Shown: piece by piece, positions 1,963-5,345 of the stretch
Layout of the letters: each line of letters starts with the position of its first letter
Numbering within the stretch: position 1 is the first letter of the stretch
IMG/VR virus record: IMGVR_UViG_2639762987_000006
Source of the DNA: a virus
Taxonomy: Duplodnaviria; Heunggongvirae; Uroviricota; Caudoviricetes
Direction: 5' to 3' (one strand)
Length of the DNA: 5,345 nucleotides
The notes under the pieces: generated by a model
The model's database searches: none
Told to the model about the DNA's origin: nothing
What the model saw: the letters and a program-made list of their open reading frames with translations, nothing else
Program-made: the position numbers and the translations under genes

Positions 1963-2427
1963 TTATCTGAGGCATTGCTCTCGAATGTATAGCTGTGCCC
2001 CTTCAAGTTGTTTTTGCATTATTATCAGTCGCGCTCTGAGGGTGAAATAATCCCGTTCAGCGGTGTCTGCCAGTCGGGGGGAGGCTGCATTATCCACGCC
2101 GGAGGCGGTGGTGGCTTCACGCACTGACTGACAGACTGCTTTGATGTGCAACCGACGACGACCAGCGGCAACATCATCACGCAGAGCATCATTTTCAGCT
2201 TTCGCATCAGCTAACTCCTTCGTGTATTTTGCATCGAGCGCAGCAACATCACGCTGACGCATCTGCATGTCAGTAATTGCCGCGTTCGCCAGCTTCAGTT
2301 CTCTGACATTTTTGTCGCGCTGGGCTTTGTAGGTAATGGCGTTATCACGGTAATGATTCAGCCCCAGACTAAGCGCACCACAGGCCGCCAGCAGGGCAAT
2401 GATGACCACGCACAGTACGCGGTTCAT
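1963..2427 (-). CDS. Rz: Rz, spanin inner-membrane subunit (i-spanin), lambda type, 154 aa
   Basis: Tracked ORF. Its translation (…[18 protein letters not shown]…[82 protein letters not shown]…) closely matches lambda Rz as I remember it. It has an N-terminal transmembrane segment, and a second gene is embedded in its +1 frame. Confidence 0.9.
2025..2207 (-). CDS. Rz1: Rz1, spanin outer-membrane lipoprotein subunit (o-spanin), 60 aa, wholly embedded in the +1 frame of Rz
   Basis: Tracked [63 protein letters not shown]. It has a lipoprotein signal with lipobox VVGC, a proline-rich mature part, and a strong Shine-Dalgarno sequence (AGGAG, 7-nt spacer) inside Rz. This matches lambda Rz1. Confidence 0.88.
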
Positions 2428-2428
2428 T

Positions 2429-2527
2429 TCACCACCAGCGTATCTGACCGATGAAATAACCGGAGGCCATAATCACAAACACCAGCCAGATAAGAATGAA
2501 CTTCCAGGTGGATAATTTTTCAGCCAT
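2429..2527 (-). CDS. Candidate small membrane peptide, 32 aa ([32 protein letters not shown]), translationally coupled to Rz
   Basis: Hand translation; the ORF is below the size cutoff of the supplied track. It has an ATG start (2525..2527), GGGAGA 8 nt upstream, and one predicted transmembrane helix flanked by Trp. Its TGA stop (2429..2431) is one nucleotide from the Rz ATG (minus strand: TGAaATG). Whether it is expressed is unproven. Confidence 0.35.
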
Positions 2528-2602
2528 CACTCGAATCTCCCGAATCAGTTTGCTAAAATCAAACACACTTTCTCCTTTGACTTTTCCGGAGTCAGGAAAC
2601 AC

Positions 2603-2636
2603 AAAACCCCGCTTGGTGCCAACAAACGGGGTTTTT
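2603..2636 (-). terminator. Terminator-like GC-rich hairpin (stem CCCCG 2607..2611 / CGGGG 2627..2631, extended by A·T pairs) with T-tracts on both sides, lying between the endolysin and Rz
   Basis: Seen in the sequence. On the minus strand it follows the endolysin stop by about 90 nt and is followed by TTTTGTGTTT; on the plus strand it is followed by TTTTTACTTTT. It could terminate in either direction or act as an attenuator. Confidence 0.4.
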
Positions 2637-2725: not shown

Positions 2726-3259
2726 TTATCTGTCGATACCCCAGCACGCCAGCGCGCTCTCCTGGTCACGACGGGATACCTGACCGTAGCAGTTGTTTGA
2801 ACGAATACGGCAGTCTCTGCCACCGTCCTTAATCCACCAGCGAATCGCCTCACACGCTCCCCTGCGATCACCTGCATTAATTCGTTTATAAAACGTCGAC
2901 GGGAAACACTTACTGGGACCAATGTTGTACGGACAGAATGACGCGATCCCCGCTTTCTGGGGTTCGCTCAATGGCACTTTGATGTTTTTCTCCACCCATG
3001 CCAGCGCCTTATCACGCTCAATGGCGTTGACCTGGTCGCATTTTTCCTTCGACAGTTTCATACCGGGAAAAACGGGTTTTCCATCCACCATCGTGGCCCC
3101 CCGACAGATGGTCCAGATGCCGGAACCATCGCGGTATGCCGTTGTGTGGTTACCCTCTTTTTCGTCCAGAAACTGGTCAAGTATCTGAGGAGCAGACGCG
3201 CCTGCAGCAATCAGCGCCAGAACAGCAGCTGACAGGGCGTATTTGATTTTTGCGCTCAT
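2726..3259 (-). CDS. R: Phage endolysin of the T4-lysozyme type (glycoside hydrolase family 24), 177 aa, with an N-terminal SAR or signal segment (RrrQ-like)
   Basis: Tracked ORF. The catalytic triad spacing E-x8-D-x5-T in …DEKEGNHTTAYRDGSGIWT… is that of T4 lysozyme. The N-terminus MSAKIKYALSAAVLALIAAGASAP is a weakly hydrophobic Ala/Gly-rich segment. It pairs with an S21-type pinholin upstream. Length and sequence match my recollection of E. coli prophage lysozyme RrrQ. Confidence 0.9.
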   Translation of the reverse strand: MSAKIKYALSAAVLALIAAGASAPQILDQFLDEKEGNHTTAYRDGSGIWTICRGATMVDGKPVFPGMKLSKEKCDQVNAIERDKALAWVEKNIKVPLSEPQKAGIASFCPYNIGPSKCFPSTFYKRINAGDRRGACEAIRWWIKDGGRDCRIRSNNCYGQVSRRDQESALACWGIDR

Positions 3260-3314
3260 GGATATTTATCAGGATGCTACCAATGAAAGATACCGGAAAG
3301 CCAACTGCAAAAAG

Positions 3315-3629
3315 CTAACAACCCGTAATCGAGTTATCAGAACTGTTAATTTTTATGGTATACCGCGCCTCTGAACAGGGGCGCGTTTCTGGCAACAGCT
3401 CGTCCCCTTCACATAACCCGGCAGCAACATCCAGGAAGACCTGTCTGATGCTCCTTCTGGCTGCTGCCTCATAAAACTCCAGCGCGGCACCTTCAACACG
3501 GTCCAGCGAGATGTCCAGGTCAAAAATTTCACCGTCAAAGCGTTCTTTGTCCCGTAACGCTAAAGTTACCGTAACTTTATTCTCAAAATTGCGGATCCCT
3601 TTCACAATCAGTTCATATTTTTGAGTCAT
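3315..3629 (-). CDS. ydfR: DUF1327-family protein (YdfR-like), 104 aa, lying between holin and endolysin; function unknown
   Basis: Tracked ORF. Its ATG at 3629 is 4 nt after the holin stop, with GGAGAG upstream. It has no signal peptide or transmembrane segment. Position and sequence match my recollection of YdfR in the Qin prophage lysis cluster. Confidence 0.75.
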   Translation of the reverse strand: MTQKYELIVKGIRNFENKVTVTLALRDKERFDGEIFDLDISLDRVEGAALEFYEAAARRSIRQVFLDVAAGLCEGDELLPETRPCSEARYTIKINSSDNSITGC

Positions 3630-3633
3630 TGAA

Positions 3634-3849
3634 TTACTCTCCCCGTGCAGCCTTACGCTTGTCTTCTTTAATCTTGAAATAAAGGTTTGTCAGGTACGTC
3701 AGCAGGCCAAATACCAGGCTACCCAGCACACCTATTGCTGCCCACTGTGAGGGCGTGACTTTATCGAGCAGCTGTAAAAACCAGTAGCCAGCACTGCCTG
3801 CGGAGGTGCCGTAGGCAATGCCTGTTGAAATTTTGTCCATGGATTTCAT
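3634..3849 (-). CDS. S: Class II holin / pinholin of the phage 21 S type, 71 aa, with a dual-start motif
   Basis: The tracked ORF (3634..3906) was trimmed to the ATG at 3849, which has GAGGTGAGG 5–6 nt upstream. The product [71 protein letters not shown] has two transmembrane segments and a basic C-terminus, and closely matches phage 21 S21 / EssD / EssQ as I remember them. The starts at Met1 and Met4 (MKSM) would give the antiholin and holin forms. Confidence 0.88.
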
Positions 3850-3949: not shown

Positions 3950-3975
3950 ATATAAAAAGCTCGCCGTAGCGAGCT
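3950..3975 (-). terminator. Rho-independent terminator on the minus strand: stem GCTCGC (3959..3964) / GCGAGC (3969..3974), loop CGTA, followed on the minus strand by TTTTTATATT
   Basis: Seen in the sequence. The perfect 6-bp GC-rich stem with a U-tract is canonical on the minus strand only. It lies between the lipoprotein genes and the holin. Confidence 0.55.
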
Positions 3976-4100: not shown

Positions 4101-4496
4101 CTAACCTCGCATGTCAAAGCCAGATTTCTGAAAATCTCTGTAGACTTCCGGATTGTTGAAGGCCGGAAATTTGGCTTTATGAGCTGCGGACTTTATCGCT
4201 TCGCAATAGGCTTTATCACCGTTACTGGTAGATATTTTTAACGCCGTGCCATCCTGAGAGAATTCCATATGCAACCTGCATTTTTTCCCTTTCCAGTTAT
4301 GCGGCTCATCAAGTTTGGCATTAATTGCAGCTCTGATTCCCCGCGCTTGCGCCCCCCATTCATCCTGATCATCCCAGCGTCCTGAACTGCAACTACCTGT
4401 AGCAGTAGTTTTGTGGCAATCTGAAGGGTGTAAAGGTGTGCATCCCGCAACAAAACCGACCCAAAAAGTCAACATAACGATTTTCTTTAATCCCAC
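4101..4496 (-). CDS. Lipoprotein with a divergent TolA C-terminal (domain III)-like domain, 131 aa precursor
   Basis: Tracked ORF with a GTG start at 4496 (GAGGAG 6 nt upstream). The signal peptide MGLKKIVMLTFWVGFVAGC carries lipobox VAGC, and Thr at +2 predicts outer-membrane sorting. The C-terminal half (…KKCRLHMEF…GDKAYCEAIKSAAHKAKFPAFNNPEVYRDFQ…) shares its Cys pair and PEVY…FQ motif with the neighbouring TolA-III-like paralog. Confidence 0.75.
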   Translation of the reverse strand: MGLKKIVMLTFWVGFVAGCTPLHPSDCHKTTATGSCSSGRWDDQDEWGAQARGIRAAINAKLDEPHNWKGKKCRLHMEFSQDGTALKISTSNGDKAYCEAIKSAAHKAKFPAFNNPEVYRDFQKSGFDMRG

Positions 4497-4646: not shown

Positions 4647-5075
4647 TCAGGGTTTAAAATCCAGCACCCCATTTTGAAATACTTTATATACTTCCGGCGA
4701 AGGGGGGGCAGGTATATCAGCATTCTTTATCGCATTCATCGCTTCACGACATAAATCGAGGTCTCCACTTTCTCTTTTAACCTCCAGTAGAAGGCCATTC
4801 GGGGCCATATGCATTCTCAGTGTACACTCTTTTCCTGAATACTTACTCGCATCCCCGAACTGTTTTTCGATGGCGCTCTTGATTTGATGGGCATACAGAC
4901 GGATATCCTCACTAACATCAGAAGTACGTTCAGATGAACTCACATACTGTGTCTCTATTGCTTTATCGGAGTAATATGATGTACGGTCATGATAATTTGT
5001 CGATACAGCATCAGTGCACCCGATAATAATCCCACTAATAATCAACGTAAGAATTGATGCGCTACGAAAACCCAT
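4647..5075 (-). CDS. Lipoprotein carrying a TolA C-terminal domain III homolog, 142 aa precursor
   Basis: Tracked ORF with an ATG at 5075 (GAGGA 5 nt upstream). The signal peptide MGFRSASILTLIISGIIIGC carries lipobox IIGC, followed by a Ser/Thr-rich linker. The C-terminal ~85 aa (…QIKSAIEKQFGDASKYSGKECTLRMHMAPNGLLLEVKRESGDLDLCREAMNAIKNADIPAPPSPEVYKVFQNGVLDFKP) aligns closely with the C-terminus of E. coli TolA as I remember it (…QIKSAIESKFYDASSYAGKTCTLRIKLAPDGMLLDIKPEGGDPALCQAALAAAKLAKIPKPPSQAVYEVFKNAPLDFKP). Confidence 0.8.
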   Translation of the reverse strand: MGFRSASILTLIISGIIIGCTDAVSTNYHDRTSYYSDKAIETQYVSSSERTSDVSEDIRLYAHQIKSAIEKQFGDASKYSGKECTLRMHMAPNGLLLEVKRESGDLDLCREAMNAIKNADIPAPPSPEVYKVFQNGVLDFKP

Positions 5076-5134: not shown

Positions 5135-5345
5135 ACAGCGAATCAGATCAAATAAAACGCACATTTGTTAACATTTACACAAAGTCTGCGTGGGATATTC
5201 TGAAAGAATATCCATAATGTGGAGAGAATCTATTGAAGTGCATGGTGCCGGGTGCCTCCCGGTGAATTCAGTACCAGCACCTGAATCCGCGATTATCCCA
5301 TATACCTACTCGCTGATTGCCCCTCCGCACAGGGGGATTCACCAT

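Follow-up and report, generated by a model that had tools for sequence, protein, structure and literature searches.

A YdfR/DUF1327 gene in the endolysin slot of a lambdoid lysis cassette: candidate accessory cargo that may dock on RNase E

Here we analyse a 5,345-nucleotide (nt) stretch of DNA from a virus of the Caudoviricetes (IMG/VR record IMGVR_UViG_2639762987_000006; hereafter the window, meaning the whole stretch) and, within it, a gene of 104 amino acids (aa), ydfR, that lies between a holin gene and an endolysin gene. The gene is real and already catalogued, as a member of a known, widely annotated small prophage family (YdfR/DUF1327); it occupies a defined slot in which its presence is optional, and it encodes a core that forms a unit under purifying selection in a family that is mobile. 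The reading that we favour, though tentatively, is that ydfR is accessory late-operon cargo whose core docks on RNase E, and not a component of the lysis machinery.

The open reading frame (ORF) list, Pfam, and existing annotation agree on a ydfR-family coding sequence at positions 3315..3629 on the minus strand, with the ATG at 3629-3627 and the TAG stop, at 3317-3315, included in the span. Specifically, the window protein matches Pfam PF07041 (DUF1327) over residues 1-96 at E 9.4e-40, scoring 135.2 bits against a curated cut-off of 25, and matches phrog_2735 at E 5e-55; both matches are far beyond chance. DUF1327 is the sole Pfam match, no NCBIfam model matches the protein, and Rfam detects nothing in or near the gene. 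The chromosome of Escherichia coli MS6198, where the element is a Qin-site lambdoid prophage, is 100% identical to the window, and the gene there is annotated as WP_039052575.1, 'YdfR family protein'; gp55 of phage mEp460, 98% identical over the whole protein, bears the same annotation. The protein lacks a transmembrane segment (maximum Kyte-Doolittle 19-residue mean of 0.75, versus 1.72 for the holin), its N-terminus is not signal peptide-like, and its isoelectric point (pI) is 4.7 over the first 77 residues (4.5-5.0 in near-identical 104-aa homologues; 5.0 for the core). The product is a small, soluble, acidic cytoplasmic YdfR/DUF1327 protein. A preliminary description of this DNA had placed a gene for a soluble 104-aa protein between holin and endolysin, starting 4 nt past the holin stop; the ORF list, the DUF1327 match, and hydropathy confirm both points, and we add the strand, which had gone unstated.

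All genes around ydfR are co-oriented on the minus strand, the order 3′ of the holin being ydfR, endolysin, a small ORF, and Rz/Rz1. The holin (3634..3849, minus strand; 71 aa) is of the S21 type (pinholin class; PF04971, E 8.7e-36; phrog_9876 and phrog_20, holin) and carries a dual-start motif, M1 and M4. Only the letters TTCA separate the holin TAA stop from the ydfR ATG, a 4-nt spacer that can be read from the sequence, and the Shine-Dalgarno element of ydfR, GGGGAGAG (3637..3644, minus strand), lies inside the last holin codons. In phage 933W, which has the same holin type and endolysin allele family, the same element precedes the endolysin gene R, which starts 4 nt past the stop of the holin gene S: the junction reads GGGGAGAG TAA GCTG ATG in 933W and GGGGAGAG TAA TTCA ATG in the window, the latter ATG being that of ydfR. 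In DLP12, S and R are adjacent and ydfR is absent. The gene fills exactly the slot taken by the endolysin gene where ydfR is absent, as in 933W; in E. coli phages the core is always found in this slot, and the earlier statement that canonical cassettes have S followed directly by R is borne out with the same holin and endolysin alleles.

The position of ydfR 4 nt past the holin stop, together with the holin-embedded Shine-Dalgarno element, implies that the gene is co-transcribed with the late genes and translated directly behind the holin. Upstream, in the same orientation, lies a leader-like match to STnc100 (Rfam; 5186-5345, minus strand, cut by the window end; 91 bits versus a gathering score of 47) that is probably the late-promoter leader RNA of the prophage, and a Q-type antiterminator gene lies just past the right window edge in the source genome; these two elements assign the entire block to the late operon, and the preliminary description was correct to put the gene inside the late lysis transcript, directly 3′ of the holin. 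The endolysin gene (2726..3259, minus strand; T4-lysozyme/phage-lysozyme family; PF00959, E 5e-24), an allele highly similar to 933W R and ~90% identical to K-12 RrrQ, starts 55 nt past the ydfR TAG stop. Its ATG (3259) is abutted by an AU-rich leader without a Shine-Dalgarno element (3260..3276, minus strand; ..ATCCTGATAAATATCC / CCTGATAAATATCC), which was defined by junction comparisons and whose CCTGATAAATATCC element is kept in ydfR-bearing variants. The endolysin start thus differs by arrangement, using GGGGAGAG in S in 933W, overlapping the ydfR stop (ATGA) in K-12, and having no Shine-Dalgarno element in the window, so that insertion of ydfR leaves the endolysin translated differently.

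The placement is conserved where the gene occurs, and the gene itself is optional. Across 166 related loci (the best 80 matches per scan, a sample biased to near-identical sequences), holin and ydfR are 4 nt apart in 158 and 3 nt apart in 6, the spacing in the other 2 being undetermined; the holin thus lies 3-4 nt upstream in 164 of the 166, in agreement with the conserved placement claimed earlier. Loci lacking a holin or endolysin match were considered as true exceptions to synteny and rejected as such, since IS insertions account for those inspected in a first survey of 88 loci (IS66 in the holin of L040 and IS3 in the endolysin of L024). Among phage records, 101 have a DUF1327 homologue and 438 have an S21-type holin (~23%), from which we estimate that roughly a quarter of S21-type cassettes carry ydfR. 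The 101 records, of isolated or curated phages, are mostly Stx1a- and Stx2c-converting phages, mEp460, and ECOR-derived phages. Near-identical ydfR alleles (95-99%) are found behind holin alleles that are 79-100% identical to that of the window, which indicates that the two genes are freely reshuffled and not co-adapted.

Of 5426 complete E. coli genomes, 4348 (80%) contain DNA of the core, at 8603 places in total and with a maximum of 10 in one genome. The family itself is tiny, with 260 clusters among 5.8 billion, and an exhaustive profile search of 1.84 billion representatives returned 80 at E ≤ 0.001. In one-genome-per-species data, the family is confined to Escherichia and Shigella, apart from two metagenome bins. 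These bins, labelled Veillonella parvula and Bacillota (L008 and L010), contain an E. coli-type holin-ydfR-endolysin arrangement, with 90-99% protein identity for holin and endolysin and 60-67% for YdfR; they probably reflect binning contamination.

AlphaFold2 models, alignments, stand-alone homologues, and the ratio of nonsynonymous to synonymous substitution rates (dN/dS) together delimit a conserved core comprising residues 1-72 (3414..3629, minus strand). Modelled with a deeper alignment, the core reaches a predicted local distance difference test score (pLDDT) of 86.6 and a predicted template modelling score (pTM) of 0.72, and its predicted fold consists of three antiparallel β-strands (residues 5-14, 18-27, and 33-43) and a long helix (residues 50-74). 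In alignments, Y53-E54 is invariant, and Y5, L7, V21, G47, and A57 are nearly so; the window protein has every one of these residues and the predicted β-β-β-α core. Pairwise dN/dS of the core is 0.2-0.3 at long distance, indicating that the protein is under purifying selection, and 30 of 31 family cores are net acidic. Stand-alone homologues of 72-76 aa, found by the exhaustive search, are 25-38% identical to the window core and keep Y5, G47, Y53-E54, and A57. The 72-residue core is an autonomous, evolutionary unit of the family. Fold searches gave no significant match and no informative fold relative, and a profile search of Protein Data Bank (PDB) sequences gave nothing below E 1; a fold shared with a known unrelated enzyme, which the preliminary description had named as evidence against its proposal, was not found.

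The distant homologues, on metagenome contigs L092-L098, occupy lambdoid tail-module sites (H-M, M-L, and I-J) or lie upstream of unrelated holins, in either case outside lysis cassettes. In particular, one stand-alone core lies between the tape-measure gene and the gene for minor tail protein M (L092), two lie 3′ of tail assembly protein I (L093 and L094), one lies between M and L (L095), and one precedes J (L098); two others lie upstream of holins of unrelated families, beside a HicB-like gene (L096 and L097). In each of the seven loci, the core is followed on its 3′ side by a convergent gene for a small protein (70-100 aa; phrog_25324, phrog_10490, or unclassified). Stand-alone cores outside lysis cassettes, accompanied by convergent genes, argue for the behaviour of a mobile accessory cassette and not of a lysis factor dedicated to S21-type holins. 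In tblastn searches against isolated phages, the distant homologue P0168 gave no match, and P0161 retrieved only the E. coli family.

The case for RNase E comes from the only functional study of YdfR in the literature searched, that of Göpel et al. 2026 (PMC13232886). In that study, a two-hybrid screen yielded three identical clones corresponding to residues 1-72 of K-12 YdfR; YdfR(1-72) interacted with RNase G, and its interaction with RNase E constructs holding the catalytic N-terminal half was stronger; Rne(1-598) co-purified in vivo with Strep-YdfR; and the Strep-YdfR eluate was rich in DNase-resistant nucleic acid, RNA co-purifying with the protein (PMC13232886). The K-12 gene is silent in normal growth, and the K-12 protein is stable (PMC13232886). 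The RNase E-interacting fragment, residues 1-72, coincides exactly with the evolutionary core that was defined here independently. The earlier statement that no function is known is therefore outdated, RNase E binding and RNA co-purification having been reported (PMC13232886), although the physiological role is unproven.

By analogy with its K-12 orthologue, the window protein may act on RNase E and matter for late phage RNA. Insertion and recombination would have put ydfR into the holin-endolysin junction, where its expression would ride on the holin-embedded ribosome-binding site. Late in infection, or after prophage induction, YdfR would dock on RNase E, and the contact would probably be made by the conserved loop and the beginning of the helix (G47, Y53-E54), which lie on an acidic surface. 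RNase E might then handle other RNAs, with, for example, the long late transcript being spared or decay being redirected, an outcome that would be analogous to those of T4 Srd, T7 gp0.7, or phiKZ Dip. Lysis by holin, endolysin, and spanins would proceed without YdfR.

Several points weigh against this proposal. Contact with RNase E is known for the K-12 orthologue only, from two-hybrid assays and in vivo co-purification, and full-length T25-YdfR was positive only with Rne(1-597) (PMC13232886). The contact could be bridged by RNA, because YdfR had no nuclease-treated in vitro pull-down, and false positives are possible, because the two-hybrid screen was genome-wide and gave 43 candidates (PMC13232886). 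An acidic protein is unlikely to bind RNA directly. YdfR overproduction caused few transcript changes and no growth defect (PMC13232886). Finally, near-invariable adjacency to the holin in E. coli phages (164/166) is also what would be expected of a lysis factor.

An alternative that we regard as unlikely takes the unit of function to be a polymorphic two-gene cassette, comprising the core with a variable C-terminal effector and a convergent partner and serving, for example, superinfection exclusion, defence, or counter-defence, such that the 104-aa allele is a relic, truncated and lacking its partner, that by itself has little or no activity. The variability is considerable. The 166 loci fall into twenty length classes, from 103 to 330 aa, built as modular extensions on one core, and at least three tail types, mutually unrelated in sequence, follow the conserved core. 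The long forms comprise the core, a linker/strand region, one or two coiled coils (SEKDDIESRIEKLE..., RRDEQFAAFYDYC...), and a C-terminal domain of ~150 aa (EWECNRPSFVV...LTYLK). In the window, the variable tail comprises residues 73-104 (CEGDELLPETRPCSEARYTIKINSSDNSITGC; 3318..3413, minus strand), as judged from alignments and low-confidence structure prediction, and residues 75-104 have pLDDT below 50 in the full-length model. At least 27 of the 166 loci have a convergent gene of 79-104 aa between the DUF1327 gene and the endolysin gene, and its own end falls inside the DUF1327 3′ end or a few nt from it. Among these partners, five or more families are represented (phrog_21218, phrog_2411, phrog_2572, and two others), which have no pairwise BLASTP similarity to each other; phage PhiR12_5 annotates one such pair, and, as described above, all seven distant loci have a convergent small gene as well.

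The window retains a trace of such a partner. Specifically, DNA alignment with L035 reveals a remnant of the convergent 79-aa phrog_21218 gene (3277..3318, plus strand), consisting of 13 codons and a stop (LPMKDTGKPTAKS*), with the stop overlapping that of ydfR; the gene is intact in L035-type loci (PHROG E 1.9e-57). The 55-nt spacer of the window consists of the last 42 nt of this gene and the endolysin leader, with ~315 bp missing between them. The window allele is a short deletion derivative, having the core and a 32-residue tail, lacking the long extensions, and retaining a 42-nt partner remnant, and the holin-endolysin locus behaves as an insertion and recombination hotspot. The hypervariable junction is seen in related loci L005, L006, L035, L100, L102, and L105-L184.

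The idea of a relic nonetheless conflicts with the standing of the 104-aa form, which is the commonest (79 loci) and is 98% conserved in plaque-forming mEp460. Its tail type is conserved on divergent cores (P0102 and P0133), and the stand-alone 72-aa cores show that the core works without extensions. No PADLOC defence model matches the window protein, the long variants, or one partner (99 aa, phrog_25324) at E ≤ 0.1, neither the long C-terminal extensions nor the convergent partners have a Pfam match, and the length classes come from the biased sample described above. A toxin-antitoxin interpretation was considered and rejected: the partner is convergent and not co-transcribed, YdfR overproduction is non-toxic, and most alleles are partner-less. 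In a bolder version of the docking proposal, which strikes us as quite unlikely, the core would be an RNase E- or RNA-docking adaptor, a constant handle for interchangeable C-terminal effectors and the convergent partner; the junction and tail gaps would mark an undescribed hypervariable cargo locus, of which the window would be the minimal, partner-deleted form.

It is distinctly improbable, in our estimate, that YdfR is a lysis-timing factor, binding the basic cytoplasmic C-terminal tail of the S21-type holin or the basic N-terminus of the membrane-tethered endolysin (MSAKIKY) and so delaying or promoting triggering or release, much as an antiholin or the Mu releasin gp25 does but in soluble form. 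The strict position 3-4 nt behind the holin in 164 of 166 loci invites such a reading, as do the complementary charges of YdfR (pI 4.7) and the holin tail (pI 9.8). The N-terminal segment of the endolysin is weakly hydrophobic (Kyte-Doolittle 19-residue mean of 1.78, residues 9-27) and is preceded by two lysines; we infer an endolysin of the signal-anchor-release type, and the anionic cytoplasmic domain of Mu gp25 controls the release of such endolysins (PMC9239132). Yet gp25 requires a membrane anchor (PMC9239132), which YdfR lacks, and the window protein has no Pfam match to DUF2730 or any other lysis family and no match in the PHROG lysis category. Moreover, 933W runs the same holin and endolysin types without ydfR, ~3/4 of phage records with S21-type holins do likewise, ydfR alleles vary independently of the holin allele, distant homologues are found in tail modules or beside different holin families, and overexpression has no growth or lysis phenotype (PMC13232886).

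Two weak phenotypes have been reported. The Keio (K-12) ydfR mutant scored as a hit for envelope leakiness, a chlorophenol red-β-D-galactopyranoside (CPRG) phenotype (supplements of PMC3879167), which would suit a lysis factor; the phenotype could, however, come from polar activation of the downstream endolysin gene. Overexpression of ydfR raised the streptomycin minimum inhibitory concentration three-fold (PMC12924614). The preliminary description had left a choice between a hitch-hiking accessory function and a role in lysis timing or regulation: the former gains from the presence of the gene in ~23% of S21-holin records, from allele shuffling, and from distant homologues elsewhere, and the latter, to which position alone pointed, loses ground.

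We consider it very improbable indeed that the protein is irrelevant and that the insert acts in cis, parting the endolysin gene from the holin-embedded ribosome-binding site and lowering or retiming its translation, as the three endolysin starts described above might suggest (window, no Shine-Dalgarno element, 55 nt past ydfR; 933W, GGGGAGAG in S; K-12, ATGA overlap), because the core is under purifying selection (dN/dS 0.2-0.3), protein conservation reaches 25-38%-identical homologues elsewhere in phage genomes, and K-12 YdfR is a stable protein with a specific interaction partner (PMC13232886).

The remainder of the window contains further elements of the late region. A moderate, terminator-like hairpin followed by CUUUUUG straddles the ydfR stop (3315..3340, minus strand; consensus scan; -12.2 kcal/mol, z -2.25), and another terminator-like hairpin lies 5′ of the holin (3958-3975, minus strand). 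Between the endolysin gene and Rz is a small ORF with one transmembrane segment (2429-2602, minus strand; 45-57 aa; phrog_6632), preceded on its 5′ side by a strong hairpin (2603-2635, minus strand; -18.9 kcal/mol, z -4.2). The ORF is limited to about a dozen of 91 related loci, a pattern suggestive of a second optional insertion into this cassette. Rz (1963-2427, minus strand) contains the nested Rz1 (2025-2207, minus strand). Two lipoproteins with TolA C-terminal domains (PF06519; phrog_5772, of unknown function) are encoded at 4101-4496 and 4647-5075 on the minus strand; they are paralogous (28% mutual identity), have lipoboxes VAGC and IIGC, and match PF06519 at E 1e-14 and 2e-23. The pair is flanked by the late leader region and the holin gene, where Stx phages have their stx genes; that the two proteins serve as decoys against TolA-dependent colicins or phages is speculation. 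A DUF1398 (YdfO-like) gene lies at 1203-1643 on the plus strand, and the PHROGs label attached to it, 'head protein' (phrog_413), looks doubtful at such a position. A run of 61 N at 230-290 stands for 215 nt of the MS6198 record, and the window is accordingly 154 nt shorter than its source.

A large fraction of E. coli prophages, Shiga-toxin phages among them, have a YdfR-family gene in the late operon. Should the RNase E interaction prove physiological, temperate lambdoid phages could be added to T4, T7, and phiKZ as manipulators of host RNA decay, acting through a late gene that is co-expressed with lysis and that, in Stx phages, follows the toxin genes within a single operon. For annotation, the lesson is that a place inside a lysis cassette is no proof of lysis function.

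Comparison with known systems sets the window gene closest to gp55 of mEp460 and to K-12 ydfR (Qin; b1555; P76160), the latter rightly named in the preliminary description: the K-12 order essQ-ydfR-rrrQ is the same holin-ydfR-endolysin order, the family is the same, and so is the 4-nt holin spacing. The two proteins are 67% identical overall, with 60 of 72 core residues identical (83%). They differ in tail type (CEGDELLPETRPCSEARYTIKINSSDNSITGC in the window versus SEKVESYLQHQYSFKIENPANKHERPHHKYL in K-12), and the two loci differ at the endolysin junction, where K-12 ydfR overlaps the endolysin start by 4 nt and the window has the 55-nt spacer with the convergent-gene remnant.

Mu gp25 (DUF2730), a membrane-anchored non-holin regulator with an anionic cytoplasmic domain that acts on endolysins having a basic N-terminus and a releasable anchor (PMC9239132), and the antiholins resemble YdfR in being encoded in or near the lysis cassette. 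The window protein differs from them in having no transmembrane segment, no DUF2730 match, and no homology to a known regulator, and in being dispensable for the same holin/endolysin pair in 933W. Lambdoid morons (bor, lom, stx, and similar genes) offer another parallel, since ydfR likewise is present or absent between conserved flanks (absent from 933W and DLP12, present in the window and Qin), its family occurs at several intergenic sites, and its 3′ end has the moderate hairpin and U-run described above. It departs from the morons in relying on the late transcript and on a ribosome-binding site inside the holin gene; no promoter-like site was detected between holin and ydfR, and G+C across ydfR (0.41-0.52) is not distinct from that of its neighbours.

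In their reported target, the nearest counterparts are small phage proteins that contact host RNase E, namely T4 Srd, which binds and stimulates the catalytic half, phiKZ Dip, which forms an acidic dimer and masks RNA-binding segments, and T7 gp0.7, which phosphorylates the RNase E scaffold (PMC4980113; PMC13232886). Window YdfR was compared with Srd, Dip, and gp0.7, and no sequence or fold relationship to them was found. The likeness is one of target and character: Srd and K-12 YdfR are both reported to target the N-terminal half of RNase E, and Dip and YdfR are both acidic.

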